Below, in pieces: positions 3,751 to 62,345 of a DNA stretch of 64,000 nt. The stretch lies in the NCBI RefSeq assembly GCF_004010195.1, contig NC_057718.1, forward strand, positions 64,529,123 to 64,593,122, in the 5' to 3' direction. The position numbers and the translations under genes were made by a program. The stretch is from Chiloscyllium plagiosum. Its lineage: Eukaryota. The stretch's first letter is position 1; every line of letters starts with the position of its first letter. The notes under the pieces were generated by a model. That model was not told the DNA's origin and ran no database searches. It worked only from the letters and a program-made list of their open reading frames with translations.

Positions 3751-3769
3751 AGATTATAATACTCAAGGT

Positions 3770-3940
3770 GATCGAATGTATACTTAGCCTACTGGACACA
3801 CTTTCCTCATTCCTGAAGAAGGGCTTATGCCCGAAACGTCGATTCTCCTGTTCCTTGGATGCTGCCTGACCTGCTGCGCTTTTCCAGCAACACATTTTCA
3901 GCTCTGATCTCCAGCATCTGCAGTCCTCACATTCTCCTCT
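3770..3940 (+). mobile_element. PLE terminal fragment, family B
   Basis: Same sequence as the 3' ends of the Penelope elements at 24530 and 32561. Confidence 0.85.
3809..3844 (+). ncRNA. Minimal type I hammerhead ribozyme, intact core
   Basis: CTGAAGA 3813-3819; stem II GGGC(3821-24)-TTAT-GCCC(3829-32); GAAA 3833-36; ACGT palindrome; GUC triplet 3838-40; weak stem I. Confidence 0.75.
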
Positions 3941-9595: not shown

Positions 9596-11439
9596 TGTTG
9601 GTACATCCATTATTGTTAAAAGATAGTCATTCCCAATCCTAATGTTAGGGGTTACATCCCACACAATCCATTAAAACCATAGTAAATACGTTTTTGAATT
9701 AACATGATGTTTGGGATTTCATCACTTCCTGACACATTTGACATGTCTGGAAAAAGCTGACCACATCTTTATGTAATCCTGGCTAAAATAAATGTTTTTT
9801 GTGTTTTTTGTATTTTCCTAACATTTAACTGACCCATCAGTTTTGGAATTTTTTGAACTACTCAAAGTTTGTTATGATATTCAGATGGGACTATAATCTG
9901 ATGGACTACTGGCCATTCTTCATCAGCGGGTGTTATAGATTATCTCTATTTTGTCATTCATACTTTGCCTTTCATATCACAATCAAGTTTTAGTTCTGAC
10001 AATTTCTGAGTAGGCTATATGGTATAATTTGCAATTACATATCAATTTGTCGCATTTCAACAAAAGATGGGCTAAGCATGTCATCCGCATTTTCTATACA
10101 ATCATTTTCTCTTTCAATTTTTGAAAGATGTATCAAGAACTGCATTTCAAAGTCATCTCCTTTTTTCCTACACTATTACTCTTCCGGTTTAAGTCAATGA
10201 GTCTCAGACCTTTCACAACACAGTCTTGAAACAACCCAGGATATTCCTCTTGTAGCATCTCAGTTTCTCTTACATCCATTGCTTGTCCTACCACCTTCCT
10301 GAGATCAACATTTTGAAACCAGCCAGTCCATTCCCCAAGATAACATCAATTCTTTCTATTGCGGTTTGTTGCATTACTCCAAATACAATTCTTTCTTTAC
10401 TATGTCACTTTTTAATCAAACCTTGTAGAATGGTTTGAACCTCCATGTCTACCTACAATGATTCTTTTCCCTCATTAAACTCTCAGGTAGACAAATTGTA
10501 GCATCAGCCAGCATAAGTGACTGACTTGATACAGTGTCTATTAATATTTTTATTGATTTACCTTCTTGATTTGAAGAATATGGAAATACTTCCTTTCAAA
10601 ATATGTAGTCAAGACCTCTGGTTTCCTGATTCCCTTTATCAATAATTCAGGAATTTTATTTTGTCGGTCCTGTGCCATTTCTTAGTAGGTTCTAAGGAAA
10701 CATGTTCCTTTCCTTTTTTGATGCATCTTTTGTTGAGGAATCCTTAGGCATTAGTATTACTGCAATTCATCTTCCATTTAACCTCCAACAAATTAGTTTG
10801 GGATGTCCAATCTTATTGTACTCAAAGCATGTTATTTCTTTATATCACTTTTAGATTCTGACATTTCGACTTTATCAGTTTAATGTTCTTCTGTTTGTCC
10901 CCTAATACTAATATCTCCTTTCTTCTCTTCCAATTTCCTTGTGCATTCCCATTTCAATACCAATTGAAAGTTGGTATGCCTGTAACCATGTAACATATTG
11001 CTATTTGTCAGAACTGCTGCTTCTTGGGTCTTTGATATTTAATACTCACCTAAAAATGCCTTAAGTTTCACTGGAATGCTATGTCTGATCAAAATTTCCT
11101 TTACACTCTATTTTTTTCTCTAACTTCATTGATTAATACCATTGATTCAAAAGCATTTTTTCTCTTGCAAATTGTACAAGTGTCTGAATAGGCGTTTCTT
11201 CTTTCTGTCCTAATTTTTAATGTATAAGCTTCAGGGACAAGCTCATAACATTGAATATTGTTCTTATTTTTAACAGTTTCATAGTCTGCAGAATTCTCTT
11301 GTGTCAAACTGGCTACACATTCATAGCTGTACCTGTCAAAATACTGAGCAATGCTAAGGTCCAAACATCTTTTGCTAACTTTGTCTGTCCAGCCAACTTT
11401 TCAAATATCTTTTAACTTAATCCTCTCTAAATTTAGGCA

Positions 11440-11614
11440 GGAGAAAGTGAGGACTGCAGATGCTGGAGATCAGAGCTGAAAATGTGTTGTTGGAAAAGTG
11501 CAGCATCCAAGGAGCAGGAGAATCGACGTTTCGGGCATGAGCCCTTCTTCAGGAATTCCTGAAGAAGGAATTGCTTGACCTGCTGCGCTTTTCCAGCAAC
11601 ACATTCTCAGCTCT
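11440..11614. mobile_element. Fold-back (head-to-head) PLE-terminus insertion with TSD
   Basis: Flanked by CTCTAAATTTAGGCA at 11425-11439 and 11611-11625. A perfect 26-bp palindrome lies at 11543-11568. Confidence 0.85.
11521..11556 (-). ncRNA. Minimal hammerhead ribozyme, intact core
   Basis: The reverse complement reads ATTC-CTGAAGA-A-GGGC-TCAT-GCCC-GAAA-C-GTC-GATT. Confidence 0.75.
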
Positions 11615-12039
11615 AAATTTAGGCACTAAGCTTGGTTTTCCCTCATTGTAATTAGTATTTTCCTCTCTGGCGAGATTATATTGTTTATTATATGAGATTA
11701 TATTGATCTCATCTCTTTAGAATTTAAGTTTTTAAAATTTCTTTCTCTGACTTTTTCTTTCTCCTATCTTTGTTTTACTTTAGTTTTCTTTCACTTCACA
11801 CTGCAACTCAAACTTTCTAATTTGTAATTATCTTTTCCCTTTCTTTCTATTCCTTTTCCCTTCTCTTTTCTTTCCTTGTTTACAAATTCAAATCTTGACT
11901 TTTCTCTGTCTCTCTAAGTCAATTATTTTCGTTTCTCAAAAATTATCTTGTGGTTCCATCACTTCTCTCAAGAAAAATACACTGGGATCATTCATTTCTT
12001 GGATTCTTGCAGTGTGGTGTGATCCATCTGAATTTTTCT

Positions 12040-14000: not shown

Positions 14001-14155
14001 GTAGACGCTGTAAATCAGAAACATCAACAGAAAATGTTGGAAAAACTCAGCAGTTCAATTCTGTGGAAGGATCACTTGACCGGAAACATTAACTCTGACT
14101 TCTCTCCACAGATGCTACCAGACCTGCTGAGCTTTTCCAGCATTTTCTGTTGTTG
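14001..14155. mobile_element. Fold-back PLE terminus, family C
   Basis: CAACAGAAAATGTTGGAAAAACTCAGCAG is inverted as CTGCTGAGCTTTTCCAGCATTTTCTGTTG. A decayed HHR lies at 14061-14093. Confidence 0.7.
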
Positions 14156-20135: not shown

Positions 20136-20431
20136 TATTATACTAAATTGGTGAAGTCTGGAAAATCAATATCTAAAATGGGTAGAACAACAAAGAGATC
20201 TGAGGTTAGATGTATAAACATCAACAAATATATTGACACATTAATAAATTCATTTACTGTAAACAAAGAACTCAATAATTTCTCAACAGATAAGGGAAAT
20301 TAAAAAGTAGACAATTTTTTTAAAGCATAAAATTATGTGCAGAAAACCTTACTGAGATCATATTTGGAGTTTAACAGTTCTAATTTCTGCAGGAGGTACT
20401 GGAGAAGGTACAGCAAAAATTTGGAGACAGT

Positions 20432-20610
20432 AAGGACTACAGATGCTGGAAGCAAGAGTCAATAGATTGAAGCTGGAGAAGCACAGCAGGTCAGTCTGCA
20501 TTTGAGGAGCAGGATGAGTCCTAATGAATAGTTTTGGCCCAAAACACTGACTTTCCTGCTTCTCGGCTACTATCTGACTTGCTGTGCTTTTCCAGCTTCA
20601 CATCTATTGA
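20432..20610. mobile_element. Degenerate fold-back PLE terminus
   Basis: TCAATAGATTGAAGCTGGAGAAGCACAGCAGGTCAG is inverted as CTGACTTGCTGTGCTTTTCCAGCTTCACATCTATTGA. A decayed HHR lies at about 20520-20550. Confidence 0.7.
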
Positions 20611-21928
20611 TGACAGCAAAGATTTATTGAAACTGAAAAAGTATACTGTTCCTTTTTGAAAGTGAAGACTGAGTAGTGACCTGGTTTTTAACATTATTGA
20701 AAGGATATACTTAACAAATCTTCTGAGCTGGGTCAGAAAGCCTATTTCTGTCCGAGATCAGATTAAAAAATTACCTATTTACCTTTGGTGCAGTTTTTTG
20801 GTGAACTTTTGGGCTCAGGACCATTCCCAACTGAAGCAGCACAAACCCATCTAAGAATCGTCACAGTCAGGACAAGTGGGAGAAGGAAATGAGAATGTAG
20901 CAGTGTTAGGGCACAACATAATAAGGGGAATAAATATTATTCTCTGCAATCCTAAGTATAAGTTCCATAAGACTGTACTGCCTGCTGAGTGCCAGGATTA
21001 AGGGGATCACTGCAGGCCTGGAGTGAAATTTGGAGCAGGAGGGGAGGGATCTAATTGTCATCATTCATATTGGTACCAATGACATTGATAAAACTGGAAA
21101 GGGGGTTCTGTTGAAAGATTTTGAACTGTTTGGAACTTACAGAGTCTCCAAGAGTCTTGGGATTAATACCTGAGCCACAGGCAAACTGGCATAATGTAAA
21201 TAAAGTCAAAGAGTTAAATATGTGACTCAAAGATTTGCATGGGAGGTATGGGTTTCAATTCATGGAGCAATGGCACCAGTACTGGGTAGAAGGGAGCTGT
21301 TCTGAAGGGATAATCTTCACTTGAACTGTGGTGGAACAAGTGTCCTAATAACTCAAAAAAGTAGGGCTGTGGAGAGGGCCATAAACTGAATAGATAGGGG
21401 AGAGGTTGAGAAGGGGAAATGTGAGTTTACAAAGCAAAATGATATTCTGGCATTTCAGAGAAGCTATCTGAATAACAAATCCCAGAGTGAAACAAGAAAG
21501 GACAAAATGTATAGTCATATACAAATAGCATCAAATCAGGTCAAAGGGGCATGGGAAATGGAAAAAGGCAAAATTAATAGCCTTTTAATTAGAATCCATA
21601 TGGGTTGGGGTATGAAATAACAAGTGGAAAACGATACTAGTAGGTGCTATCAATAGGCCCCCTAATAGTAACTGTTCATTAAGATACAGAATAAATTAAG
21701 AGGAATGGGAGCTTGTAAAAAAGGTAGTACATTAATCGTGGGTGACTGTGATCTTAGTGTTGATGGGAAAAATCAAATTGGTAGAAGTAGCCACGAGGAG
21801 GAATTCATAGCGTGTATTTAAAACAGTTTCCTACAATAATAATGATCCAACCAGGGATCAGACTATTTTGGGTTTGGTAATGTATAATGATGCTGAATTA
21901 ATAAATGATCTCTGATAAATGAGCCCTC

Positions 21929-24529: not shown

Positions 24530-26030
24530 AGATCAGGAGTGTGATGCTGGAAAGCACAGTCAGGCAGGCAGCATCCGAGGAGCAGAAGAGTCGATGTTTT
24601 GAGCATAAACTCTTCATCAGGAATGGGGGAAGGGGCAAGAGAGCTGAGAGATAAATCAGAAGTGGGGGTGAGGGTGGGAGTGGGGTTGGGGGCCGGGGAA
24701 GGTAACTAGGAAGGTGATAGGTAGATGAAGATATGGGCGTAATGGTGATAGGTTGGACCACAGGGTGGAGCAGATAGGTGGGAAGGAAGATGGACATGGA
24801 GGACAGTTCACGAGGGTGGTACTGATTTGGATGGTTGACTGTGGGATAAGGTTGGGAGAGGGGTGATGAGGAAACTGGTGAAATGGACATTGATGCCATG
24901 TGGTTGGAGGGTCCCAAGATGGAAGATCTTCCTCCGGTTGTTGGGTGGCTAGGATTTGGCAGTGAAGGAAGCCCAGAACTTGCATGTCCTTGGCGGAGTG
25001 GGACAGGGAGTTGAAGTGGTCGGCCAGAGGGCGATGGGATTGTTTAGTGCGTGTGTCCCAAAGATTTTCTCTAAAACGTTCTCCAAGTTTGCATCCTGTT
25101 TCCCCAATTTAAAGGAGACCACATCGAGAGCAACAGACACAGGAGGTGAGATATTCGGATGTGCAGGAGAATATCTGTCGGATGTGGAAGGATCATTTGG
25201 ATCCTTGGTTAGAGATGAGGGGGGTAGGTATGGGCACAGGTTTTACACATCTTGCATTGGTGAGGGAAAGTGCCTGGGAATGGAGGGTGGGTTGCTGGGG
25301 GATGTGGACCTAACAAGGGAGCCATGGAGGGAATGCTCTCTGTGGAACGCTGAAAGGGAGGGAAATAGATCTCTGGTGGTGGGGTCTGACTGCAGGCGGC
25401 AGAAATGGCGGAGGATGATACCTTGTATCTGGACATTAGTGGGGTGAAAGGTAAGGACCAGGAGTGTTGTTGCAGTTGGAGGGATAGGGTTCAAGGGCAG
25501 AGGTGCGGGAAGTAGAGGAGATGCACTGGAGGGCATTGTTAACCACATAGTTGAGGAAATTGTGGTCCTTGAAATAGGAGGCCATCTGGGATGTTCTGCT
25601 GTGAAATTGATCCTCCTGGGAGCAGATACAGCAGAGGTAGAGGAATTGAGAGTAAAGGATATCGTTTTTACAGGAGTGGGGTGGGAAGGAGGAGTAGTCC
25701 AGATCGCTGTGGGAGTTGGTGGTTTTGAAATAAATGTCTGTGTTGAGTCGGTTGCCTGAAATGGAAATGGAGAGGTCTAGGAAGGGGAGGGAGGTGTTTG
25801 AGATGGTCCAGATGAACTTGAGGTCAGGGTGGAAGGTGTTTGTGAAGTTGATAAATTGTCCAACATCCTTGTGGGAGCACGAGGTAGCACCGATACAATC
25901 ATCGATGTAGCGGAGGAAAAGGTGGGGAATGGTGCCGGTGTAACTGCGGAACTGTCCCATGTATCCAACGAAGAGGCCGGAATAGCTGGGGCCCATGTGG
26001 GTGCCCAGGGCTAAACCTTTGGTCTGAATG
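24530..26030 (-). mobile_element. 5'-truncated Penelope-like element (RT, GIY-YIG, HHR-bearing terminus)
   Basis: QTKGLALGTHMGPSY..LFLRYIDDCIG (RT); GIY-YIG-like segment at about 24990-25140; terminal HHR (G12A) at about 24592-24620. Confidence 0.9.
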
Positions 26031-26049
26031 GATGTTGTGCTTAGTACCA

Positions 26050-26500
26050 TCTCAGTAATATTACTTATCCCAGTCCCTGCTTTTGTTCATCTGCAATTCA
26101 AACCCTTATTCAGGCCTTTATAACCTCAAAGGTCAAATATTCCAGTGGTCTCTAGGTTAGTAACCCATCTTGCACCACCCCCGCAACATAAATTTGTGTC
26201 ATTCAAATTTGCTGTCCCTATCTGAACTCATAAAAATATTGCTCACATATTGTGCTTGTCAAAAATGTTCTGTCCAGCAAGAATTTAGAATTCTCATCCT
26301 TGTTTTCAAATTCCTCCTTGGTTTTCCATGCCTCTATCTCTATAGAGTCCTCCAGTCTTACAGCTATCTAAGATTCCTGCAATTTTGGCCTCTCATACAT
26401 CCTTGATTTCTATCACTCTTTATTTGGCACCCTGGTTCCTGCTGCAAGGGTTTAGAAACTAACATCTCTTTTGCTTCCATATATCTAAGACACGTTTTAC
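26050..26500 (+). mobile_element. L2-like LINE 3' fragment
   Basis: ACCCTTATTCAGGCCTTTATAACCTCA encodes TLIQAFITS; FRILILVFKFLLG follows. Confidence 0.65.
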
Positions 26501-32560: not shown

Positions 32561-35500
32561 TAGGAGAAAGTGAGGACCGCAGATTCTGGAGAGTCAGAGT
32601 CAAAAAGTGTGGAGCTGGAAAAGCACAGCAGGTCAGGCAGCACCCAAGGAGCAGGAGAGTTGATGTTTTGGGCATAAACACTTCATCAGGAATGTGGAGG
32701 GGGACGGAGGCTGAGAGGAAAATAAAGAAGTGGGGCTAGGGAGGGAAGATAACTGGGAAGGCAATAAATGGATGCAGCTGGGGGTAATTGTGATGGGTCG
32801 GTGAGGAGGGTGGGGCGGCTAGGTGGGAAGGAATATGGACAGGTAGGACAGATCAAGAGGGTGATGCCGAGTTCGAGGGATGGATCTGGGATGAGGTGGA
32901 GGGAGGGGAGATTTGGAAACAGGTGAAGTCAATGTTGATGCTGTGCGATGGAAGGGTCCCAAGGCGGAAGATGACTCATTCTTCCGCCAGTGTTGGATGA
33001 CTTGGATTTGGTAGTGGAGGTGGCCCAGGAATTGTATATTCTTGATGTAGTGGGAAGGGGAGATGAAGTGGTCAGCCACAGGGCAGTGGGACTTTTTGGT
33101 GCGTGTGTTCCAGATATGTTCCCTGAACTGCTCCGTGAGTTGGCATCCTGTCTCCCGATGTAGAGGAGACCACACCAAGAGCAACAGACACAATACATGA
33201 GGTGGGTGATGTGCAGGAAAATCTCTGCTGGATGTGAAAAGATCCTTTTGGGCCTTGGATGGAGGTTATGGGGTAGGTGTTGGCACAGGTTGCCAGGGAC
33301 GATGCCAGGTGTGGAGGGAGGGGAGGCGTGGACCTAATGAGGGACCCCCAGAGGGAATGGTCTCTGTGGAACACAAATAGGGGTGGGGAAGTAAATATAC
33401 CTGTGGAGTGGGGTCTGATTGTTGGTGGCGGAAATGGTGGAGGATAATGCATTGTGTCCATAGATTAGTGGGTAGAAGGTGAAGACCAGGAGGGTTCTAT
33501 TGTCGTTGCGATTGGAAGTTTGGTGGGGGGGGGAGGGTCAAGGGAGAAGGTGAGGAAATAGAGGAGAGGCATTGAATGGCATTGTGGTCCTTGAAATAGG
33601 AGGCCATTTGGGATATCCTGGTGTGGAAATGCTCCTCCTGGGAGCAGATACGGTGAAGGCAGAAGAATTGGGAGAAAGGGTTTGTTTTTACATAGCGGTA
33701 TGGGGGGATGGGAGGGGGGAGGATGTGATAAGAGGTATAGTCAAGGTAGCTGTGGGAGATGGTGGGTTTGAAATAGAAGTCCATGTTGAGTCGGTCACTG
33801 GAGATGGAGATATCCAGGAAGGGGAGGGAGGTGTCCGAGGTGGTCCATGTGAACCTCAAGTCAGGGTAGAAGGTGCTCGTGAATCTGCCAATTGAATGAA
33901 TGTGGCGGTGGATGGGCACTGGTTGGGTTAGCAGGACAGGAGAAACAAAGGGCTTGAAGGCCTTCACCATGGAGGATGGATGAGTGTAGGGACTGGATGT
34001 CGATAGTGAAGATGAGGCATTGGGTTGGGCAATCAAAAGTCACAGAGGAGATGGAGGGCATGTGAGGCATCCCCCAAATGTATTTGGGGAGTTCTTGGAC
34101 CAAGGGGGCCAAGATGGTGTCAACATAGAGGAGATAAGTTTGGCGGGGAAGGAGCAGCAGATATAATAGGTCTATCGGGGCAGTCAGGTTTTTGGATTTT
34201 GTGAAAGAGCTCGAACCAGGCAGTTTGGGGTTGTGGAACTATAAGGCTGGAGCTGTGGATGGGAGATCCCCTGAGATGATAAGGTCATGGATGGTTTGAG
34301 AAATGATGATTTGGTGATGGGAGGTGAGGTCACAGCCAATGGGGGCAGTAGGAAGAGGTGTCCATGAGTTGGCATCTGGCTTTGGCAATTTGTGGTCGGT
34401 GCGCCAAACTACCATTGTGCCTCCACCCCCCCCCCACTCCCTTGTCAGTTGGTTTAATAGTGAGATTGTGGTTGGTACAGAGGTCCGCAAGTTGCAAGAA
34501 TGAGAGATTGGAGTGGGTAAGACGAGTGGATAGGTTGAAGCTGTCAGTGTCACAGCAGTAGTTGGAGATAAAGAGGTTGAGGAAGGGTAAGAGGCTAACA
34601 CGGGTGTACAAGAGGATGGAATACATTGGAGGTGGGAGAAGGGGTTTACGGCAGGTGGGTGGGGGTCATGATTGAAGAAGTAAGCTTGGTGGTGGAAGCG
34701 GCGGAAGAAAAGTTCAATGAAACAACAGTTACGGATTTCGTTGACCCAGGAAATGATTGTTCATCCTCAGTGAGGGGGCGGTCTGGGGGGGAAGGTAAAA
34801 ATGTAGCAAGGCTAGGGGCTGAGTGTGTAGAGCTGAAGTTGGGGTGGAGATTGTCCCTGGAGTGGAACTGGTCATGTGATTGTTGGCAATGTCACTGGAG
34901 GAAGTAGTGGCAGTCAGGGGAGTGGAACTGAGGCGTTTGGAGGCACCCGTGGGGGCGCAAGTGTCGTTCTGGGTGGCGTTTGTAGAAATGGTGTCTTAGG
35001 TAGTGGCATTCTCGGTGATGGTTGCGGAGGCGACATGGTAGGCAAAGTTTCAGTAAGTGATGTCAGCAGGGGTGGAAGTGCCATGTTTGACGGCAATAGC
35101 AGGGGCAGAAGTGGGATCTGTGGCAGCATAAGGGTGCTTTGAGTGTGTGCAGGGGTGGCAAGGTTGTCGATGGTGTTCTGGTGAGTGACATCAGTAGGGG
35201 TTGAAGTGGCGTTGGCGGTGGCAACCATGGGTTGGAAGTGATGTGGCGGGCAGCGTCTGTGGAGGTTTCAGTGGCAGACTTTCAGCAGCGATTATGGAAG
35301 TGATATGGTTGGCGGTGGCTGTGGTCCGTGGGATGGCAGAAGTGTTGTCAACATTGGCAGTGGTAGTGGCTGTAGCAGCTGCATGGTTAATGGTGCCTGA
35401 CCGGTTCCAGAGGCGAGGGGAAGAGTCTGGTGTGCTCAAGGTATCTTGGGTTTGGAGGTAAGTAGGTGAGAGTTTGGTGTACTTAAGTTCTTTGATGTCT

Positions 35501-35790
35501 GATAAGCTGGAGAAAAAGTGTTTGTTGAGTGTGTGGATCCTTCTCAGGATGAAGAATAGCAGATGTCCTTTGCAGGTCTGGGAGGATATGGCCCTGAGCT
35601 GGGGCAGGGCTGATTGCAGGGAGAGTAGGCAGCGACACATGGCTGCGAGCTTGGAGTGGAGGATCCAGAGGGAGAACCATTTTTGGAAGCTTTGAATTTG
35701 CTGTAGGTAGTGGTTGTTCCAGCCAGGTCCAAATTGAGATGGTCTGAATGTTGTATGGTGTCCATGGGGGAGACGTCAGTTGTGTAGTAG
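32561..35790 (-). mobile_element. Near full-length decayed Penelope-like element
   Basis: N-terminal region; TIKPTDKG (PLE KxxDKG motif); IFTIDIQSL; CSWCGLLYIG (GIY-YIG); terminal HHR at about 32662-32689. The RT core is deleted near 33890. Confidence 0.9.
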
Positions 35791-37412
35791 GACATCCAAT
35801 CCCTATCCACATCTATCCCCCATGGTGAAGGCCTCCAAGCCCTCTGCTTCTTCCTGTCCCGCCAACCCAACCAGTACCCATCCACCGACACACTCATTTG
35901 ATTGACATAACTGGTCCCCACCTTCAACAACTTCTCCTTCAAATCCTCCCATTTCCTTCAGACCAAAGGAATAGCCATGGGCACCCGCATTGGCCTCAGT
36001 TATGCCTGCCTCTTCGTAGGATATGTGGAACAGCCCATCTTCTGCAGTTACACCCCGAAACCAACCCCACCTTTTCCTCTGCGACATTGATGACTGTATC
36101 GGAGCCACCTCATGCTCCCATGAGAAGGTTGAACAGTTCATCAATTTCACTAACACCTTCCACCCTGACTTTAAGCTCACATGGACCATCTCGGACACCT
36201 CCCTACTCTTCCTGGACCTCTTCATCTCTATCTCTGGCAACCAACTCAACATGGACATCTATTTCAAACCCACCAACTCCCACAGCTAACGTAACTAGCA
36301 CCTCCTCCACCGCCACCTCATGAAAATGTGATACCTTACACCCAATTCCTTCGTCTCTGCTGTATCTGCTCCAAAGAGGAGCAATTCCACTCCAAGATAT
36401 CCCAGATGTTTTCCTATTTCAAGGGCCACAATTTTCTCTCCCAAGCAATTAACAATACCCTCTAGTGTATCTCCTCTACTCCCTGCACCTCCACCCTTGA
36501 CCCCCATCCCTTCAACTGCAACAAGGATAGAACCTGACTGGTCCTCACCTTCCACCCCACTAATCTCTGAATATACATTATCCTCCATCATTTCCCCACC
36601 ACCAGAGGTATATTTCCCTCTCCACCCCTAGCTGTGTTCCATAGAGACCATTCCGTCTGTGACTCCCTCGTTAGATCCATGCCCCTACCAACCCATCCTC
36701 CACATGGCACTTTCCCTAGTCACCACAAGAGGTGTAAAACCTATGCCAACACCTCCCTCCTCACCTCTGTCCAAGGCCCAAAAGGATCTTTTCACATCCG
36801 GCAGAGATTTTCCTGCACATTCACCCACCTCATGTACTGTGTTCATTGCTCTCAATTTGGTCTCCTCTACATTGGACGACAGGATGCCAACTTGCGGAGC
36901 ATTTCAGGGAACATCTCTGGGGGACACACACCAAACAACCCCCCCCATCTTGTAGCTGACCACTTCAACTCCCCCTCCCACTCCCCCAAGGACATGCAAC
37001 TCCTGGGCCTCCTCCACTGCCAAATCCAAGCCACGTGACAATTGGAAGAAGCATGCCTCATGTTCTGCCTTGGGACCCTTCAACCACACAGCATCAACAT
37101 CGACTTCACTAGTTTCCAAATCACTCCTCCCCCACCTCATCCCAGATCCAACCCTCCAACTCTGCACCACTCTCTTGACCTGTCCTACTTGTCCACTTTC
37201 CTTCCCACTCATCCGCTCCACGCTCCCCACTGACCTATCTAATTAGCCCCCACCTGCACCCACTTATCACTTTCCCAGTTACCTTCCCCCTTGGCCCTGC
37301 CTCAAACCCCCCTATTTATCTCTCAGTTCCCTTCCCCTTCCACATTCTACTCTCCTGCTCCTTGTATGCTATCTCACCTGCTTTGCTTTTCCAGTGCCAC
37401 ACTTTTCGACTC
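35791..37412 (+). mobile_element. 5'-truncated Penelope-like copy, inverted against the previous one
   Basis: Starts at DIQSL; LFLCDIDDCIG; CSQFGLLYIG; terminus lacks the HHR core. Confidence 0.9.
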
Positions 37413-41150: not shown

Positions 41151-41524
41151 AATACTTACTTCACCTATAGATTTGTGAGTTCTGATGGAAGCAGCAATGA
41201 GGTCTCATAGATGATTTCATTAGGCTACATCCACTGAAACAAGGCAAGAAAAACATTGCATACAGGCATATCAAGAAACCTTGGTTCCTTTACCAGGACA
41301 GTGTTATCTGAATTTCCACTTCACAGTTGTCATTGCTGTCAAGGAGGACAGGGTGCTTGTGACCCTAATTGTATTTCCCACATTTTGGGAACCCCTGCTC
41401 TATAAATTTGAGACTTTGGAAGTGCCATTGTAATTAAGTTGAAGGATAGGTTTTTTTCCCCCAGAATAGATGTAGAAGGAGGAAGTTTGGAGGGTGGAGG
41501 TTGGAATCAGAGGTGACTTGCTAA

Positions 41525-41710
41525 ATAAAAAACAAAAAACTGCGGATGCTGTAAATCATAAACAAAAATAGAAATTGCTGGAAAAACTCAGCATGTCTGG
41601 CAGCATCAATGGAAATCAGAGTCAATGTTTTGGGTCGTGTGACCCTTCCTCAGAACTGAGGATAGCTAGGAAAATGTTGATTTATATGCAGAAGAAGGAC
41701 GGGGGAAGGA
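41525..41710 (-). mobile_element. PLE terminus, family C
   Basis: The reverse complement reads CTGAGGA-A-GGGTC-ACAC-GACCC-AAAA-CATT. Confidence 0.75.
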
Positions 41711-46900: not shown

Positions 46901-47825
46901 AAAGATTAAGTCACAAGAGCCCACAGTGTTGGAGGTAGTACATTGGTATGAAAGAAAATCAGCTCAGCTGCAGGAAACAGCACGTGGGAATAAGGGTTTT
47001 TTTTAGTTGCATTCCACATTGACTGCAATAATTTACAATATATATTAATAACATGAAGGAAGGAAGTGAATATACTATAGCCAAATTTGTATTCAACACT
47101 AAAAAAGGTAGAAGGCAGGTCGTGAAAGGGTACAAACAGTTTATAGAGGTATTTTGACAGGTTTACTAAGTGTGCAAAATGTTGGCAAATGGAGTATGTG
47201 AGAAAATGTGAAATTGTTCATTTTGGAAAAGAGGACAAAACAATGGAGTATAATTTAAATGGAGCAAAACTGCAGAAAGCTGCAACACAAAGGGAGTTGA
47301 GGGGTGTTTGTAAACAAAACACAGAAAGCTAGCACACAGGTGCAGCAGGTAATCAGGAAGGGTATTGAAATGTTGGCCCTTATTTCAAAAGGAGGTACAG
47401 TATAGGAGTAGACAAATCTAACTGCAACTGCACAAGGTGCTGGTGAGACCATATCTGGAATACTGTGAGTAGCTTTGGTCTCTTTATTTAACGAAAAATA
47501 TCATTTTATTGAGGATAGTCTCCAGAAGGTTCACTAGGATGATTCCTGGTAGGGAGGGATATCTTATGAACAAATGTTAAACAGACTGGGACTCTACTCA
47601 CTGAGTTTTAGAATAATGAATGGTGATCTCATGGAAAACATAGAGGATTATTAAGGAGCTTGATAGGATAAATGTTGAGAGGATGTTTCCTCTCATGGGA
47701 GAGTCTAGGATCAGAGGGTATAGTCTCAGAATAAAAGAGTACCAATACAATAGATGAGGAGGAATTCGTTTTCTCAGAAGTTTGAGTGTCTTTGGAACTC
47801 CTTGTCAAAGAGAGCTGTGGGGCAG
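43905..47825 (+). mobile_element. Near full-length decayed CR1
   Basis: The ORF1 remnant parallels 53736-54690. APE, RT and C-terminal motifs follow in order. A nested CR1 tail lies at 44535-44680. Confidence 0.8.
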
Positions 47826-48057
47826 ATGATATTTCCTATTATTTTTCTCAGGTAGTGCCCTCTGAGAAAAATAACAGGAAATGACATCACCCCCAACCCA
47901 AGGAAATTTAAACACATAAACAGAAAGCGGAAAATAACACCAGCACATGGTATTACCTAGTATGGTGACGAAAGATCTGAAAACTAATCTTCCAGCTCAG
48001 CAAGCAAACGTATATCCAGAACATCAACCTGAGCTACATGTCTTCTAAAACCTCACT
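47825..48057 (+). mobile_element. PLE terminus, family D, with fold-back 5' junction
   Basis: Inverted repeat 47831-47851/47862-47882 (1 mismatch). Half HHR TTACC-TAGTAT-GGTGAC-GAAA lacks CTGANGA. Confidence 0.55.
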
Positions 48058-51884: not shown

Positions 51885-52355
51885 AGTTAATGATTCATAC
51901 AGCAGAGAAACTAGCCCTTTAGCCCAACTCAGGTGTGCTGATAGGATTTCCTGAATATTACCAATTCTATTTGCCTGCAATTGGCCCATATCCTTCTAAA
52001 CCCGAGCCATGTACCTGTCTAAATGTCTTTTAAATGTTGTAATTTTACCTGCCTCTGAAAAATGTGTTGCTGGAAAAGCACAGCATGTCAGGCAGCATCC
52101 AAGGAGCAGGAGAATCAACATTTCAGGCATAAGCCCTTTTTCAGGAATTCCTGAAGAAGGGCTTATGCCCAAAACGTCGATTCTCCTGCTCCTTGGATGC
52201 TGCCTGACCTGCTGCGCTTTTCCAGCAACACATTTTTCAGCTCTGATCTCCAGCATCTGCAGTCCTCACTTTCTCCTAATTGTACCTGCCTCTACCACTT
52301 CTTCTGGTCGTTCATTCCGTATACGCACCACTCACTATGTGAAAAGGTTGCACCA
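51885..52355 (-). mobile_element. CR1 3' end hosting a fold-back HHR insertion
   Basis: ITTFKRHLDRYM; the CR1 sequence is continuous across the TSD. Confidence 0.8.
52057..52277. mobile_element. Palindromic twin-hammerhead PLE-derived insertion
   Basis: Inverted arms of about 90 bp centred on GAATTC (52145-52150). TSD TAATT(T/G)TACCTGCCTCT at 52040-52056 and 52277-52293. Confidence 0.9.
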
Positions 52356-53059
52356 TCCATTTGACACTTTTGGCTAGAGATTGTTGAAAATACTTAGGTC
52401 ATATCTTTTGCACTGATGTGCTGGGCTCCTCCCTTGTTGAAGATGGGGATATTTCTGGAGCCTGCCACTCTAATGAATTGTTCAATGTCCCATTACTAAT
52501 CATGACCGAATATGGCAGGACCACAGAACTTAGATTGTTTTGCCATTTAAAGTTCTATTGTTTAACTTCAGAGCACAGGTATAATGTTTTGAAGCAGTTG
52601 TGTATATAATCTTTCCAATATTGAGGTTCAGTGAGCAAATTTTAGGCTAATGAGTGTACAGTTCCAAATGGTGAATTGGTTAAAGTGTGCTGAGACATCA
52701 CAGGAGATCAGAACTGGAGAGAGCAGAGAGCTTATTGGTTGGGGAGGACATTCTAAATGTTTTATTGGAAAGCTGGATAAATAGAAATACAATGAATAAA
52801 AAAACAGAAGGTTTCTGAACGTTGACAGGAAGAGAATTGGGTAGGAGAAGGCTCAATAAATAGTAGCAGAGAGCTGATGAGCCAAAGAGCCTGTTTCTGA
52901 ATTGGAAAATTCCAAGTACCTTCTCCTCTCTAACCCAGTTTTACTGGAAGTCAGTGTTTGGTTCTGATTCTGAGGGTACAGTAAGGTTTCCAAAGACTGA
53001 CTGCATTTCTTAACGAAAAATACAGTTGCTAAAATGAGCATACAAAGCATATTTCACAA

Positions 53060-53410: not shown

Positions 53411-53735
53411 CCAGTTGGAATGGAAGGATCAACAGCAAGGACCAGTGGCCCGATGGGAAGGTAATTTTTAAATATAAAATCGGGAGATTCAGGTATATAT
53501 TTTGGCAGTGGCTGAATCCTGAGACACCACACTTGTAGTGTCTCCCAAACGCCCTTCTCCTCTAACCATAAAAAAAAAGGAGTTGTGTGTTGCTATGGTA
53601 AGGCTTTTCAATTTATATTTCTTGTGTATCATGATTGATTAGAAACTTACTATTTGCAGCTAATTGAATAAGATGACAGAAGTACTAGAAATTATACAAC
53701 TCATAAATTTGTAAAAGTTAGTTAAATAAGTAGAG

Positions 53736-54690
53736 ATGGCAAGACAGATGATGTACTGTAGCTGTATGATGTGGGAGCTGGCTGATCCCATTGTGAATGG
53801 CAGTGACCACATCTGCAGCAAATATTGGTTGCTGGAAGAACTCTGGATCAGAATTGATGATCTGGTATCTGAGCTTCAAACACTGCGGCACATCCGGGAG
53901 GGTGAGAGTTACCTGGATGCTTTGTCTCAGGAGACCGTCATACCCGGCAGATTAAGTAATTCAAATTCAGTTAATGATCAGGAACAACAGGCTGTGACTG
54001 TAAGTGAGGCAGGTAGGGGGGTTCTGAGTTCAGGGGTGGAGCAGCCTCAGCCCTTGACCTTGTCCAACAGGTATGAAATTTTTGCTCCTTGTATGGATGA
54101 GGAAAAGGGCTGTGGACAGGATGAGCCAGCTGACCATGGCACCATGGTGCAGAAGGCCATTCAAGAGGGGGGAGCAAAAAGACAAGTAATTGTTATAGGG
54201 GATTCTATACTTAGGGGGATAGATAGTATTCTTTGTGAGCCAGATCGGGAGTCCTACATGGTGGGTTGTCTGCCTGGTGCCAAGGTGCAGGACATCTCCG
54301 ACTGGCTTGAAAGGATATTGGAGCAGGAGGGAGAGGAGCCAGTTGTTGTGGTCCACATTGGTACAAACAACATTGGTACAAGGCTAGGAAGGAGGACCTG
54401 TTTGGGAGTATCAAGCACTAGGAAGGAAATTGAAGAACAGGTCCTTGAAGATCATAATCTCTGGATGGCTGCCTGAGCCACGTGCTAATTGGCATAGGGA
54501 AAATGGAAATTAGGGAAGTAAACACGTGGCTAAGATATTGTGTGGGAAAGAGGGATTCCATTTCACGGGACATTGGCATCAGTTTTGGAACCGGGGCGAC
54601 CTGTACCCATGGGACGGTCTCCAGCTGAACCAATCTGGAACCAGTGTTCTGGCGAAAAGGATAAATAGGGTGGTCACTAGGACTTTAAAC
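53736..54690 (+). pseudogene. CR1 ORF1p: Cys-rich N-terminus, coiled coil, SGNH esterase
   Basis: CSCMMW..HICSK, then LEELWIRIDDLVSELQTL, VIGDSILRG and VVVHIGTNN. Frameshifted near 54380. Confidence 0.85.
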
Positions 54691-55770
54691 TTGTGAGTTG
54701 GGGGGGAAGGGAAAGGGAAAGTGACAGGGAGTATGGAGTCAAGTAGAAAGATAAGCAGCAGGTTAGAATGTGTGCAGGGTTTAAGTTCAAGGCAGACAAG
54801 GAATGAAACTAAAAGGAAGGATAACTTAGGACATATTAATAAAGGTGATGGAAATCATGACGATAAGAAAATTAGCATGAAGATGCTTTACCTGAATGCT
54901 TATAGTATTTGTAACAAAGTAGATGAATTAACAGCACAAATCATGGTGAATGATTATGATGTGGTAGGCATCACAGAGATGTGGTTGCAGGGGGTTCAGG
55001 ACTGGCAGTTAAACATCCAAGGATTTATAACTTATCGAAAAGACAGGGAGATGGGCAGAGGGGCTGGGGTTGCCTGCAACCGTCCAGATTATAGACCAGT
55101 GAGGACTGGACAGACTGTCTCAGAAGAAAAGCTCTTTTGGGTTAAACATTTTTCTAGAAAGTTAATCTTCTTATCTGATGTGTTGATACTGCAGAGTTGT
55201 TTCTGTAGGACCAAAGTTCTGGTTACCCAGTAATTTGTTTTTATGCTTCAGGTTATGGCTTTTGCAGATTAAATTTTTGTTTTAATATAAAAAAAAGAAA
55301 TTAAATCTATGACACTGAATGATAAAGGGTCAGATGATGTGGAGTCTGTGTGGGTGGAGTTCAGTAACCACAAAGGCAAAAAAAAATAATGGAGTTATGT
55401 ACAGACCTCCCAGCAGTGGTCAGGACCACGGGCGCAAGATGTACGGAAATAGATAGGGTATGTCAGAAAGGCAAGGTCACGGTGATCATGGGGGAATTCA
55501 ATATGCAAATAGTTTGGGTGAATAATGTTGCTGTTGGATCCAAAGAAAGAGAATTCATGGATTGCTTACAGAATGGCTTTTTGGAACAGCTTGTGATGGA
55601 GCTCACAAGGGAGCAGGTTATTCTGGACTTCGTGCTATGTAATGAGCCAGACTTTATGACAATAGACAATAGGAAACAGGTGCAGGAGTAGGCGATTCGG
55701 TCCTTTGAGTCAGCACTTATAAACTATCTTAAAGTAAGGAAATACTTAGGTGGCAGTGATCATAATATGG

Positions 55771-56279
55771 GTTTAGATCAAAGTGGTGTTGGAAAAGCAC
55801 AGCAGGTCAGGCAGCATCCGAGGAGCAGGAAAATCAACATTTTGGGCAAAAGCCCTTCATCACGAATGGAGGCAGAAAGCCTCCAGGGTGGAGAGATAAA
55901 TGGGGGATTGGTGCTGAGGAGAAGGTAGCAAAGAGTACAATAGGTGAATGGGCATGGGGATGGAGGGGATAGGTCTGAGAGGAGGGTGGGGGAAGGTAGC
56001 AAAATGTACAATAGGTGAATGGGGTGGGGATGGAGGTGATAGGTAAGATGTGGGGAGGGGAAATGAGGAAAAGTGGACTTCACCGGTATCCACACACCCC
56101 CACCCCCACAACCATTTACCTCTCCACTCTGGAGGCTTCCTGCTTCCATTCGTGATGACGGGCTTTTGCCCGAAATGTCAATTTTCCTGCTCCTCGGATG
56201 CTGCCTGACCTACTGTGTTTTTCCAGCACCACTCTGACTAAACTCTGGTTTCCAGCATCTGCATTCCTCACTTTTGCCT
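55771..56279. mobile_element. Head-to-head PLE-terminus pair with 16-bp TSD
   Basis: AGTGATC(A/G)TAATATGG at 55755-55770 and 56280-56295. HHR motifs lie at 55835-55863 (-) and 56152-56179 (+). Confidence 0.9.
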
Positions 56280-57934
56280 AGTGATCGTAATATGGTAGAG
56301 TTCAATCTGCAATTTGAAAGAGAGAAGGCAAAATTGGATGTAATGGTGTTATAGTTAAATAAAGGTAATTACAAGGGCATGAGAGAGGAACTGACGAAAA
56401 TCAACTAGAAGCAGAGCCTAGTGGGGGAGAGATTAGAGCAACAATGGCAGGAGTTTCTGGGTGTACTTGAGGACACAGTACAGAGGTTCATCCCAAAGAA
56501 AAGAAAGATTATCCGGGAGGGAATTAGACAGCCCTGACTGACAAAGGAAGTCAGCAAATGTATCACAGAAAAAGAGGGAGCCTATAAAGTGGCCAAGAGC
56601 ACTGGAAAATCAGAAGATTTGGAAGACTACAAAAACAAATAGGGGATAACGAAGAGAGAAATAAGGATAGAGAGGATCAAATATGAAGCTAAGCTAGCCA
56701 GTAATAATAGAAATGATAGTAAAAGTTTCTTTCAATACATAAGAAACAAACGAGAAGCAAAAGTAGACATTGGGCCGCTCCAAATTGATGCTGGAAAGCT
56801 AGTGATGGGAGAAAATGAAATAGCTGAAGAACTTAATAAACACTTTGTGTCAGTCTTCACAGTGAAAGACATGAGTAATATCCCAACAATTAAGAAGAGC
56901 CAAGGGGCAGCGTTGAGTATGGTAGCCATTATAAAAGGGGAAGTGCTAGAAACTCTAAAAGGTCGAAAAGTTGATAGAGCTCCTGGCCCGGATGGGCTGC
57001 ATCCTAGAGTTCTGAGGGAGGTGGCTGAAGAAATAGCAGAGGCGTTGGTTGTAATCTTTCAAAAATCACTGGAGTCAGGGAAAGTCCAGATGATTGGAAA
57101 ATCACTGTTGTAACCCCCTTATTCAAAAAAGGATCAAGCCAAAAGATGGAAAATTACAGGCCAATTAGTGTAACCTCGGTTATAGGTAAAATTCTAGAAT
57201 CCGTCGGTAAGGATGAGGTTTCTAAACTCTTGGAAGCACAGGGTCAGACTAGAACAAGTCAGCATGGATTTAGTAATGGGAGGTCATGCCTGACAAACCA
57301 GTTATAATTCTTTGAAGAGGTAATAAGTAGGTTAGATCAGGGACTTTCAAAAGACCTAGACTTTCAAAAGACCTTTGATAAGGTCCCTCACGGGAGGCTG
57401 CTGAGTAAAACGAGGGCCCATGGGTTTCAAGGTGAGCTACTGGCATGGATTGAGGATTGGCTGACAGAAGGCAGAGAGTTGGGATAAAAGGTTCTTTTTC
57501 GGAATGGCAGCTAGTGACAAGTGGTGTCCCGCAGGGTTCAGTTTGGGCAACAGCTATTCACTTTTTATATTAATGATCTGGATGAAGGGACTGGGGGCAT
57601 TCTGGCGAAGTCCGCTGATGATACATAGTTAGGCAGACAAGCAGGTAGATCTGAGAAGGTGAGAAGGCTGCAGAAAGATTTACACAGTTTAGGAGAGTGG
57701 ACCAAGAAATGGCTGATGAAATTCAACGTGAGCAAATGCGAGGAATTGCACTTTGGAAAAAAGAATACAGGCATAGACTATTTTCTAAACGGTGAGAAAA
57801 TTCATAAAGTACAAAGGGATCTGGGAGTGCTAGTCCAGGACTCTCTTAAAGGTTGACTTGCAGGTTGAGTCCGTGGTTTAGAAACCAAACGTAATGTTGT
57901 CATTTCTCTCAAGAGGGTAGGAATGTAAAAGCAG

Positions 57935-59952
57935 GTTCAAGGATTTAGAAGTTTCAATAAGAACAGAGAAGATGGTAAAAGAGGGGGAGGTATGGCATTG
58001 TTAGTCAAGGACAGTATTAGGGTGGCAGAAAGGATGTTTGAGGACTCGTCTACTGAGGTAGTGTGGATTGAGGTTAGAAACAGGAAAGGAGAGGTAACTA
58101 TGTTGGGAGCTTTCTATAGGCATCTGACTAGTTCAAGAGATGTAGAGGAAAGGATAGCAAAGATGATTCTTGATAGGAGCGAGTATAACAGGGTAGTTGT
58201 AATGAGGACTTTAACTTTCCAAATATTGGCCAGAAATATTATAGTTTGAGTGCTTTAGATGGGTCAGTTTTTGTCCAATGTGTGCAAGATGGTCTCCTGA
58301 CACAGTATGTAGACAGGCCAACAAGGGGCAAGGCCACATTGGATTAGGTATGAGTAATGAACTGGGCTAGGTGTTAGATTTGGAGGTAGGTGAACACTTT
58401 GGTGATAGTGATCACAATTCCATTATGTTTACTTTAGCGATGGAAAGGGATAAATATATACTGCAGGGCAAGAGTTATTGCTGGGAAAAGGCAATTATGA
58501 TGCGATTGGGCAAGATTTAGGATGCATAAGAAGCAAACTGCAGAGGATGGGCACAATTGAAATGTGGAGCTTATTCAAAGAACTACTACTGTGTGTCCTT
58601 GATAAGTATGTCCCTGTCAGGCAGGGAGGAAGTGGTCAAGTGAGGGAGTTTTAGTTTAGTAAAAAAGTTGAATCTCTTGTCAAGAGGGTAACAAGGGAGA
58701 GAATACGACCCATTAAAGATCAGCAAAGCGGCCTTTATGTGGAGCCGCAGGAAATAGGGTAGATACTAAACAAGTATTTTGCATCGTTATTTACTGTGGA
58801 AAAGGACATGGAAGATATAGAATGTAGGGAAATAGATGGTGACATCTTGAAAAAAAACCATATTACAGGGAAGGAAGTGCTGGATGTCTTGAAATGCATA
58901 AAGGTGGATAAATCCCCAGGACCTGATCAGGTGTATCCTCGAAATCTGTGGGAAGCTCGGGAAGTGATTGCGGGGCCTCTTACTGAGACATTTGTATCAT
59001 CGATAGTCATAAGTGAGATGCCGGAAGACTGGAGGTTGGCTAACATGGTGCCACTGTTTAAAAACGGTGGTAAGGACAAGCCAGGGATCTATAGACCAGT
59101 GAGCCTAACATCGGTGGTGGGCACGTTGTTGGAGGGAATCCTGAAGGACAGGATGTACATGTATTTGGAAAAGTAAGGACTGATTAGGAATAGTCAACAT
59201 GGCTTTATGCTTGGGAACTCATGTCTCACATAATTGATTGAGGTTTTTAAAAAAGTAAGAAAGAGGATTGGTGAGGGCAGAGCAGTGTATGTGATCTATA
59301 TGGACTTCAGTAAGGCGTTTGACAACGTTCCCCATGGAAGACTGGTGAGCAAGGTTAGATCTCATGGAATACAGGGAGAACTAGCCATTTGGATACAGAA
59401 CTGGCTCAAAAGTAGAAGACAGAGGGTGGTGGTGGAGGGTTGTTTTTCAGACTGGAGGCCTGTGACAGTGGAGTGCCACAAGGATCGGTGCTGGGTCCAC
59501 TACTTTTCATCATTTAAATAAATGATTTGGATGCGAGCATAAGAGTACACTTAGTAAGTTTGCAGATGACACCAAAATTGGAGGTGTAGTGGACGGCGAA
59601 GAGGGTTACCTCAGATTACAACAGGATCTGGACCAGATGGGCCAATGGGCTGAGAAGTGGCAGATGGAGTTTAATTCAGATAAATGAGAGATGCAGCATT
59701 TTGGGAAAGCAAATCTTAGCAGGACCTATACACTTAATGGTAAGGTTCTAGGGAGTGTTGCTGAACAAAGAGACCTTGGAGTGCAGGTTCATAGCTCTTT
59801 GAAAGTGGAGTCGCAGGTAGATAGAATAGTCAAGAAGGCGTTTGGTATGCTCTCCTTTATTGGTCAGAGTATTGAGTACAGGAGTTGGGAGATCATGTTG
59901 CAGTGGTTAGGCCACTGTTGGAATATTGCATGCAATTCTGGTCTCCTTCCTA
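57935..59952 (+). mobile_element. CR1 composite: subfamily A APE part (to 58687) and subfamily B RT part (from 58688)
   Basis: APE motifs, then KSPGPDQVYP, YMDFSKAFD and QRDLGVQV. It breaks at 59952. Confidence 0.85.
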
Positions 59953-62345
59953 CAACTTCCCACTACTGTCCTTGATTGGCTCTACTTTTACTCTAGTCAT
60001 TCTTTTATTCCTGATATACTAGAAAGCTTTAGGATTTTCCTTCATCATATCTGCCAACGACCTCTCAGGTCACCTTCTGGTCCTTCTTAGCTCTCTCTTT
60101 AGGTCCTTCCTGGCTGACTTGTACCTCTCAAGTGCCCTAACTGAGCCTTCACATCTCATCCTAACATAAGCCTTCTTCTTCCTCTTATAGCCATAGTCAT
60201 AGAGTCATAGAGATGTACAGCATGGAAACAGACCCTTCAGTCCAACTCATCCATGCCGACCAGATATCCCAATCCAATCTTGTCCCACCTGCCAGCACCT
60301 GGCCCATATCCCTCCAAACTCTTCCTTTTCATATACCCATCCAAATGTGATTTAAATGTCGCAATTGTCCCAGCCTCCACCACTTCCTCTGGCAGCTCAC
60401 TCCATACACGTACCACCCTCTGTGTGAAAAGGTTTCCCCGTAGGTCTCTTTTATATCTTCCCCTCTCACCCTGAACCTCTGCCCTCTAGTTCTGGACTCC
60501 TGGACCCCAGGGAAAAAGACTTTGCCTATTTACCCTATGCATGCCCCTCATAATTTTGTAAACCTCTATAAAGTCACCCCTCAGCCTCTGACGCTCCAGG
60601 GAAGACAGCCCCAGTCTGTTCAGCCTCTCCCTGTAGCTCAGATCCTCCAACCCTGGCAACATCCTTGTAAATTTTTCTGCACCCTTTCAAGTTTCACAAC
60701 ATCTTTCCGATAGGAAGGAGACCAGAATTGCACTCAATATTCCAACAGTGGCCTAACCAATGTCCTGTACAGCTACAACATGACCTCCCAACTCCTGTAC
60801 TCAATACTCTGACCAATAAAGGAGAGCATACCAAACGCCTTTTTCACTATCCTACCTACCTGCGACTCCACTTTCAAGGAGCCATGAACCTGCACTCCAA
60901 CATCTCTTTGTTCAGCAACACTCCCTAGGACCTTACCATTAAGTGTATAAGTCCTGCTAAGATTTGCTTTCCNNNNNNNNNNNNNNNNNNNNNNNNNNNN
61001 NNNNTACCTCTTATGCTCGCATCCAAATCATTTATGTAAATGACAAGAAGTAGAGGACCCAGCACCGATCCTTGTGACACTCGACTGGTCACAGACTTCC
61101 AATCTGAAAAACAACCCTCCACCACCACTCTCTGTCTTCTACCTTTGAGCCAGTTCTGTATCCAAATGGCTAGTTTACCCTGTATTCCATGAGAGCTAAC
61201 CTTGCTAATCAGTCTCCCATGGGGAACCTTGTCGAACGGCTTACTGAAGTCCATATAGATCACATCTATCGCTCTGCCCTCATCAATCGTCTTTGTTACT
61301 TCCTCAAAAAACTCAATCAATTATGTGAGACATGATTTCCCATGGACAAAGCCATGTTGACTAGCCCTAATCAGTCCTTGCCTTTCCAAATACATGTACA
61401 CCCTGTCCCTCAGGATTCCCTCCAACAACTTGCCAACCACTGACGTCAGTTCCCTGGCTTGTCCTTACCACCCTTCTTAAACATTGGCACCACGTTAGCC
61501 AACCTCCAGTCAGCCTGTGACTATCGATGATACATATATCTCAGCAAGAGGCCCAGCAATCACTTCTCTAGCTTCCCACAGAGTTCTTGGGTATACCTGA
61601 TCATGTCCTGGGATTTATCCACCTTTAGGCATTTCAAGACATCCAGCACTTCCTCTCCTGTAATATGGATATTTTGCAAAATGTCACCATCTATTTCTCT
61701 ACAGTCTATATCTTCCATATCCTTTTCCACAGTAAATACTGATGCAAAATACTCATTTAGTATCTCCCCCATTTTCTGTGGCTCCACACAAAGGCTGCCT
61801 TGCTGGTGTTTAAGGGGCCGTATTCTCTCCCTAGTTACTTTTTTGTCCTTAATGTATTAATAAAAACTCTTTGGATTCTCCTTAATTCTACTTCCTTTAT
61901 ACACTTCTAGGGATTCACTCAATCTATCCTGTCTATACCTGACATATGTTTCACTCTTTTTCTTAACCAACGCCTCAACTTCTTTAGTCATCCCATATTC
62001 CCCATACATACCAGCCTTCCCTTTCACCCTGACAGGAATATACTTTTTATGGATTCTTGTTATCTCATTTCTGAAGGCTTCCCATTTTCCAGCCGTCCCT
62101 TTGCTTGCGAACATCTGCCCCCAATCAGCTTTCGAAAGCTCTTGCCTAATACTGTCAAAATTGGCCTTTCTCCAGTTTAGAACTTCAACTTTTAGATCTG
62201 GTCTATCCTTTTCCATCATTATTTTAAATCTAATAGAATTATGGTCGTTGGCCCCACAGTGCTCCCCCACTGATACCTCAGTCACCTGCCCTGCCTTACT
62301 TCCCGAGGGTAGGTCAAGTTTTGCACCTTCTCTCGTAGGTACATC
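59953..62345 (-). mobile_element. CR1 subfamily B (62345-60187) followed by a subfamily A fragment (60186-59953)
   Basis: YMDFSKPFDKVPH and SQGSVLGP; CTCTATGACT tail at about 60190-60212. Confidence 0.9.
60973..61004. other. Assembly gap
   Basis: Run of 32 N. Confidence 1.

Follow-up and report, generated by a model that had tools for sequence, protein, structure and literature searches.

The palindromic insert at 52057-52276 of the window (the whole 64-kb stretch of DNA analyzed here) is a real feature, and it is the shortest form of an ordinary PLE head-to-head insertion, a kind already described and not a new class. We consider it likely to be a dead, minimal insertion of an endonuclease-bearing (EN+) PLE, the mirror half of which was made during insertion by the joining of two cDNAs. 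Its arms are the terminal pLTR region of a PLE, the target was duplicated, and one arm is tailed while the other is not. As a single locus it carries little weight, being one dead stub among very many. The stub population, on the other hand, represents the simplest head-to-head PLE insertions. The mechanism of such insertion is still called undefined in a published account (PMC8557442), and the shared 5′ boundary and two 3′ ends of the stubs could separate two-primer integration from antisense self-priming cheaply; the boundary could mark the end of the template RNA, which would make the two-primer model testable.

The first-pass annotation had reported a 220-bp insert made only of two family termini set head to head without a spacer, cleanly inserted in a LINE 3′ end between 17-bp target-site duplications (TSDs). 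We recovered the 220-bp insert and, between direct repeats, its inverted arms (52055-52147 and 52148-52240; 93 nt each, 92% complementary), which do lie head to head with a spacer of 0 nt. The insert is not a mirror image, however: it is composed of 91 + 129 nt, the right arm being 36 nt longer (52241-52276) than the left, and the inverted repeat stops short of the right end. An AT dinucleotide at the axis (52147..52148) is common to both arms; counted with it, the left arm (52055..52148, minus strand) is an inverted PLE terminal arm without a tail, or pLTR stub, recognized from the inverted repeat and the alignment of relatives, and the paired part of the direct right arm (52147..52240, plus strand) is recognized from the inverted repeat and a BLAST match. 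The 36 nt at 52241..52276 (plus strand) are a one-sided PLE “tail,” identified by arm alignment and by the two classes of 3′ end in other copies. The axis is also the 5′ boundary of the family (3809 in a single-arm copy) and the outer base of hammerhead helix I. The whole 129-nt right arm is 96.9% identical to that single-arm copy (3810-3937), and the left arm shows six substitutions relative to the same near-consensus copy (3809-3937), four of them at CpG, with sites at which the reference copy itself deviates excluded; between the two arms, CpG transitions account for 5/7 differences. Folding of the insert stretch gave a hairpin of -161.8 kcal/mol, whereas shuffles averaged -64.5 (z -23.3), and 0/200 of them were as good.

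The flanking direct repeats (52040-52056 and 52277-52293, plus strand) are identical at 16/17 positions; since a G occupies the mismatched position in 4/5 paralogous LINE ends, the mutation lies in the left copy. The last 2 nt of the left copy (52055-52056) double as the end of the left arm, a microhomology, and we therefore give the TSD length as 15-17 bp where 17 bp had been assigned. When the insert and one repeat were deleted, the resulting empty site aligned without a break to 5/5 paralogous LINE ends in the window (72-77% BLAST-reported identity). This unbroken alignment identifies the repeat as a true TSD, its right copy being defined by the direct repeat and the empty-site alignment together, and upholds the reading of a clean insertion in a LINE 3′ end. 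The host, an old LINE 3′ end on the minus strand (51969..52380) that was split by the insertion, was identified from the same alignment and from RVT_1 in related copies (38295-38789 and 60928-61320); we take the LINE around the insert to be CR1-like. Pfam was run on 125 stop-to-stop frames of at least 85 aa in the window, minus one containing N; at E≤0.001 RVT_1 alone matched among these ORFs, and no host exon was recognized.

A BLAST search of the window with the right arm returned 18 matches including itself, 15 of which were aligned; distant matches at 41539-41634, 14111-14142, and 38313-38346 were excluded from this count as another family. Seven of the aligned arms end with the tail, and eight stop ∼35-40 nt sooner. 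Four loci in the window contain two arms head to head within one TSD, and in 4/4 the tail occurs on exactly one arm; their TSDs measure 17 bp (52040..52293), 15 bp (11425-11625), 13 bp (20410-20625), and 16 bp (55755-56295). The loci at 52 kb and 11.4 kb share the GGAATTCC centre, from which the other two differ, giving three centre types among the four. The 11.4-kb locus (11425..11625) holds another palindrome of this family, with the GGAATTCC axis, a tail on one arm, an internal deletion in the other, and an exact 15-bp TSD. Both of its arms carry deletions, as the decay of a perfect hairpin would lead one to expect: the short arm lacks ∼37-40 nt beside the axis, and the long arm lacks 12 nt between short repeats. 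The remaining two loci are each an insertion of a sister subfamily. The one at 20410..20625 has an asymmetric centre, and its tail arm begins at about the predicted hammerhead cut site, unlike arms of the 52-kb family; it could be a copy of cleaved RNA. At 55755..56295 the arms extend beyond the boundary by at least 36 nt and are separated by 208 nt, with the tail on one of them. Single arms occur as well: the copy at 3783..3938 (plus strand), of the same family as the insert, bears a tail and a min-HHR core that is intact, is preceded by ∼26 nt of parent sequence, and served as our reference, while a sister copy at 13616-13745 also begins at the family 5′ boundary, beside a 10-bp TSD.

The link to coding PLEs runs through sister arms ∼85-87% alike (24540-24623 and 32563-32692) that lie downstream of decayed reading frames; no ORF of the insert's own subfamily, and no intact coding parent of it, is present in the window. 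In the decayed coding PLE at 24538..26086 (minus strand), a sister arm stands downstream of RT-thumb and GIY-YIG remnants, and the Atlas matched 25439-26086 to HTH_animal clusters (0.97). Two further decayed coding pieces are arranged head to head at 32563..37412, with a tail arm at 32563 and a tail-less arm at 37412, 73% alike; they repeat at kilobase scale the tail/no-tail pattern of the stubs. A TSD was sought around this pair and not found, and the pieces may represent two separate events. The Atlas matched 36574-37038 to GIY-YIG clusters (0.94), and a decayed Cys-rich linker before that remnant (36571-37038) hints, as a lead only, at the Neptune type as described in PMC8557442. Pfam scored none of the PLE ORF fragments. 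Together, the PLE terminus in the arms, the one-sided tail, and the sister arms downstream of RT/GIY-YIG remnants sustain the earlier interpretation of the insert as a non-coding product of PLE machinery. As a separate observation, the PLE arm at 37320-37412 (plus strand) is devoid of the entire hammerhead core, its parent sequence directly abutting post-cut sequence.

Family boundaries beyond the window were examined in contigs of three related organisms (three runs), which were aligned to the single-arm near-consensus copy over window positions 3650-4050. The contig runs yielded 77,825 (X1), 73,698 (X10), and 18,823 (third run) aligned records, the first two at ≥90% identity. In 3/3 runs, 5′ loose ends concentrate at 3809 (119, 146, and 54 contigs), where contigs mostly continue into unrelated AT-rich flanks (agreement 0.33-0.37); a smaller group extends upstream into conserved parent sequence (3783; agreement 0.72-0.83). 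All three consensus strings of the loose ends at 3809 terminate in G, but fold-back remnants are mixed into them, and this G carries no weight as a possible cap signature. Among the 3′ loose ends listed, 3937/3938 occurs in 3/3 runs and 3898 in X1 and X10. Summed contig depth, which shows shape and not copy number, is just upstream of the 3809 boundary 5%, 6%, and 10% of the depth just inside it in the three runs, the upstream part of the reference being short and having mismatches of its own; over the tail, depth is ∼40%, 44%, and 61% of the arm peak. One of the 15 joints listed, which connects 3902 head to tail with 3810, reuses the boundary and appears in all three runs (4, 1, and 1 contigs); among the others, opposite-strand joints fall at six different asymmetric places, and the perfect centre is absent; contigs built from short words probably cannot span a perfect palindrome. 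Position 3809 is thus the boundary of the family generally, as single arms and tandem joints begin there and not palindromes alone. None of the 8.3 million records in a raw RNA run (X22) aligned to the reference, a result that is uninformative for expression. Just upstream of the reference copy, at 3664-3719, lies a second, less abundant repeat, over which summed contig depth is thousands of times that of the flank in 3/3 runs.

These observations are consistent with the following course of events. The PLE protein would have nicked both target strands ∼15-17 bp apart, and each nick would have primed reverse transcription of the pLTR, with an outer internal start producing the tailed arm and an inner one the tail-less arm. 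Both cDNAs would then have run off the RNA at a single 5′ end, where hammerhead helix I has its base, and their own ends would have annealed through the terminal AT, leaving a palindrome without a spacer. That RNA end was probably the pLTR transcription start or else a nuclease stop at the folded motif, both of which fit equally; the boundary site in the parent sequence presumably conforms to an initiator consensus, and the conservation of the boundary bases may perhaps reflect helix I alone. Afterward, CpG decay and one other transition would have inactivated both hammerhead cores. A two-cDNA model needs no palindromic master to account for arms that overlap by 2 nt with zero spacer, for a tail on one side within a single TSD, or for a recurrent centre. 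In the published in vitro work, a PLE protein nicks both strands, extends them, and prefers AT-rich targets, and reverse transcription starts from two internal sites whose spacing corresponds to the tail, hammerhead cleavage being unneeded (PMC11167929, Frangieh et al.). PLE promoters have also been located in the pLTR (PMC2377424, PMC3846280).

A more tentative extension, which we consider possible but hardly probable, is that a discrete short RNA starting at the hammerhead base is the source of the stubs, copied twice per insertion, once per nick. It might be the 5′ end of PLE mRNA, or a free-standing RNA of ∼130 nt amplifying in a SINE-like manner on PLE protein. If this is true, the two-primer integration step has left a very large natural record in the genome, which would fix the 5′ end of the RNA and the two RT start sites at base resolution, and the origin of PLE inverted pLTRs becomes directly testable.

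Joining of two cDNAs must be weighed first against an explanation that keeps the same PLE identity but derives the palindrome from a single nucleic acid that primed itself or folded back, an antisense template being the case proposed by Arkhipova et al. This is the published reading of PLE head-to-head junction palindromes (PMC3846280), and a single template would suit the T-run variants, which are common to both arms at each locus: both arms carry the 5-T variant at the 52-kb locus and both carry the 4-nt form at the 11.4-kb locus. The shared state within each locus weakly suggests per-locus pairing of arms, across two loci only; nearest-neighbor arm identities were not counted as evidence, as the aligner had misplaced the T-run gap, and the 2-4% share of the extra-T variant in contigs was likewise not counted, such contigs often being clipped instead of gapped. 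Fold-back would normally be expected to leave a loop of at least 3 unpaired nucleotides, however, whereas the two arms of the insert share 2 nt and lack a spacer. Self-priming also leaves unexplained why single arms and head-to-tail joints begin at the same base and why the tail is found on exactly one arm. We therefore judge it rather unlikely.

Somewhat less probable still is the new class favored by the first-pass annotation, a self-propagating, non-autonomous palindrome that would be transcribed over its full 220 nt and then re-inserted by PLE protein. Both of the two palindromes of this family in the window have the same centre, and this point also weighs against the two-cDNA reading, as it would be expected of a palindrome that copies itself; further, the family is very abundant, as the X1 and X10 contig counts attest, and pLTRs are reported to suffice in cis for trans-mobilization (PMC3846280). 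Yet the boundary is found in non-palindromic copies and tandem joints too, so that a fixed centre needs no self-propagating palindrome, and centres vary in the sister loci and at contig joints. Most of the pLTR sequence in a full transcript would be buried in a hairpin of -155 to -172 kcal/mol, and no left/right-specific shared variants were seen between the two family loci compared. Moreover, inverted pLTRs, junction palindromes, one-sided tails, and TSDs have been published for PLEs (PMC3846280, PMC8557442), as have pairs of min-HHRs (PMC4209133), and the description “undescribed element class” is hard to maintain; recurrent fold-back with per-locus pairing, the alternative that the annotation itself had named, is a better fit than such a class.

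In MITEs, which are short, non-coding, and strongly hairpin-forming, both termini consist of inverted repeats and the short TSD has a fixed length. That the insert is a MITE of DNA-transposon type, or that its palindrome arose after insertion when two neighboring arms underwent repair or recombination, is very improbable: the insert is indeed a short, non-coding inverted repeat with a strong hairpin and a TSD, but its sequence is a PLE terminus of retroelement source, the 36 nt beyond the inverted repeat on the right (the PLE tail) and TSDs of 13-17 bp among loci rule out terminal repeats with a fixed TSD and dispose of the label “MITE-looking,” and the one TSD pair around both arms indicates that they arrived in a single event, contrary to an origin by repair.

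The make-up of the insert matches what has been described for this group of elements. An inverted, 5′-truncated copy adjoining at the 5′ end and a tail of 30-40 bp, often at only one end, are given as typical PLE features (PMC8557442, Craig et al.), with the tail defined as in PMC8557442 and PMC11167929, and Arkhipova et al. (PMC3846280) describe tails, TSDs, and inverted pLTRs that meet head to head with a palindrome at their junction. The insert has an inverted, 5′-truncated copy adjoining head to head, a tail within the 30-40-nt range at one end, and, across its relatives, a TSD of variable length. Like the complex EN+ PLE insertions in these accounts (PMC3846280; PMC8557442; PMC2377424), it has head-to-head arms, one TSD around the unit, and a palindromic junction, and its one-armed tail of 36 nt compares with 31 nt in Pen2a of A. 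vaga. It differs from them in being without any ORF, in having arms of only ∼90 and 130 nt, and in a centre that recurs at one base within its subfamily; its TSD of 15-17 bp also exceeds the 8-10 bp of rotifer PLE copies. The family of the insert has in common with Poseidon of Anolis carolinensis (PAc) a tail defined by two RT starts downstream of the hammerhead, as well as AT-rich targets, and the hammerhead of the 52-kb insert is uncut, just as PAc uses unprocessed RNA in vitro (PMC11167929); PAc belongs to a different lineage from the family of the insert. Animal non-LTR retrozymes, reported in the one chondrichthyan genome sampled, are likewise short, non-coding, derived from the PLE pLTR, and equipped with a type I hammerhead (bioRxiv 10.64898/2026.07.22.740005). 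Their units are arranged head to tail in tandem with intact same-strand motifs, whereas those of the 52-kb insert are head to head with dead motifs on opposite strands, and head-to-tail joints elsewhere in the family are few. A literature search by title and abstract, with Dfam, Repbase, subscription papers, and figures and supplements outside its scope, found nothing on these particular stubs.

As had been noted from the letters alone, each strand of the insert carries one minimal-hammerhead motif starting at the axis, and the cores of both are substituted, so that neither arm at 52040..52293 retains an intact core. The dead minimal type I hammerhead of the left arm (52113..52148, minus strand) has G8 changed to A at 52139 in its core, C11.1 changed to U in helix II at 52125, and the helix-III palindrome broken at 52120. 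In that of the right arm (52147..52182, plus strand), the core at 52151-52157 is followed by an extra A (52158), helix II (52159-52170), a G12 to A change at 52171, the palindromic ACGT at 52174-52177, and a predicted cut after 52178. The G12 change is CpG decay, and the same change is present in 10% (X1) and 14% (X10) of family contig depth. The family motif itself is intact at 3813 (plus strand) and 11552 (minus strand) by regular-expression match, with the same letters in the majority of aligned contigs: a CUGAAGA core, one extra A, a 4-bp helix II, GAAA, a self-complementary ACGU replacing helix III, and a short helix I. The motif was called from its core consensus, which was compared by eye and by regular expression with the description of Cervera and de la Peña, and its numbering was assigned by comparison with the same source (PMC4209133). 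The family consensus thereby has the min-HHR core (CUGANGA / GAAA / UH), the extra nucleotide between 9 and 10.1, and the palindromic 15-16 positions, and it resembles the metazoan PLE min-HHRs of that description further in the G10.1-C11.1 pair, the missing helix-III loop, and the short helix I; its helix II, by contrast, is 4 bp as against 7-8 bp in the Schistosoma examples. Published opposite-strand min-HHR pairs lie 100-700 bp apart (PMC4209133), whereas the two motifs of the 52-kb insert abut with no gap and have both cores mutated. Rfam returned 0 matches over the whole window at E≤1, and an exact scan for the 27-nt motif found 0 loci in metagenome contigs and 0 in viral contigs. The proposal that the centre is a ribozyme cut site was rejected, as the centre lies 31 nt upstream of that site.

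The first-pass annotation had further supposed that a transcript entering from either side would choose between a long hairpin and the ribozyme fold. Such a switch is excluded by transcription order and fold cost. The head-to-head layout means that read-through from either side transcribes the antisense arm before the hammerhead arm, and keeping the hammerhead out of the long hairpin has a computed cost of 36 kcal/mol for the plus strand and 44 kcal/mol for the minus strand, quite apart from the mutation of both cores. A single min-HHR motif is reported not to cleave and dimers to cleave weakly, activity requiring a same-strand partner (PMC4209133, Cervera and de la Peña); the motifs here are on opposite strands, and therefore no hammerhead dimer can form within one RNA, which removes an in-cis dimer as a candidate. 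By the folding computation, a read-through host transcript would give a hairpin of ∼90 bp and never a ribozyme, and many perfect hairpins of this size might supply sizeable double-stranded RNA where host transcripts read through.

Several other features of the window touch on these subjects. An intact min-HHR-like motif of an unrelated family, with a longer helix II and an AGCT palindrome at helix III, is located at 77-105 (plus strand), and at E≤1e-3 the window yielded no second copy of it. PLE-end-like stubs of a more distant family occur at 13972-14155, where they include a fold-back pair (14022-14056 / 14121-14155), with relatives at 5344-5400, 12047-12170, 38264-38359, and 41516-41665. 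Decayed frames at 53730-55233 (plus strand), which gave no Pfam match, resemble a LINE ORF1 (zinc-finger/esterase-like) and the start of a LINE endonuclease. An imperfect palindrome of 78 nt (80%) at 47818-47895 has no relation to the insert family. Finally, 58688-61838 contains a large inverted pair of CR1-like LINE pieces (58688-59545 vs. 61008-61838, 86%; 59704-59952 vs. 60711-60972, 90%) that has a run of N near 61.0 kb and is possibly an inversion or an assembly gap.
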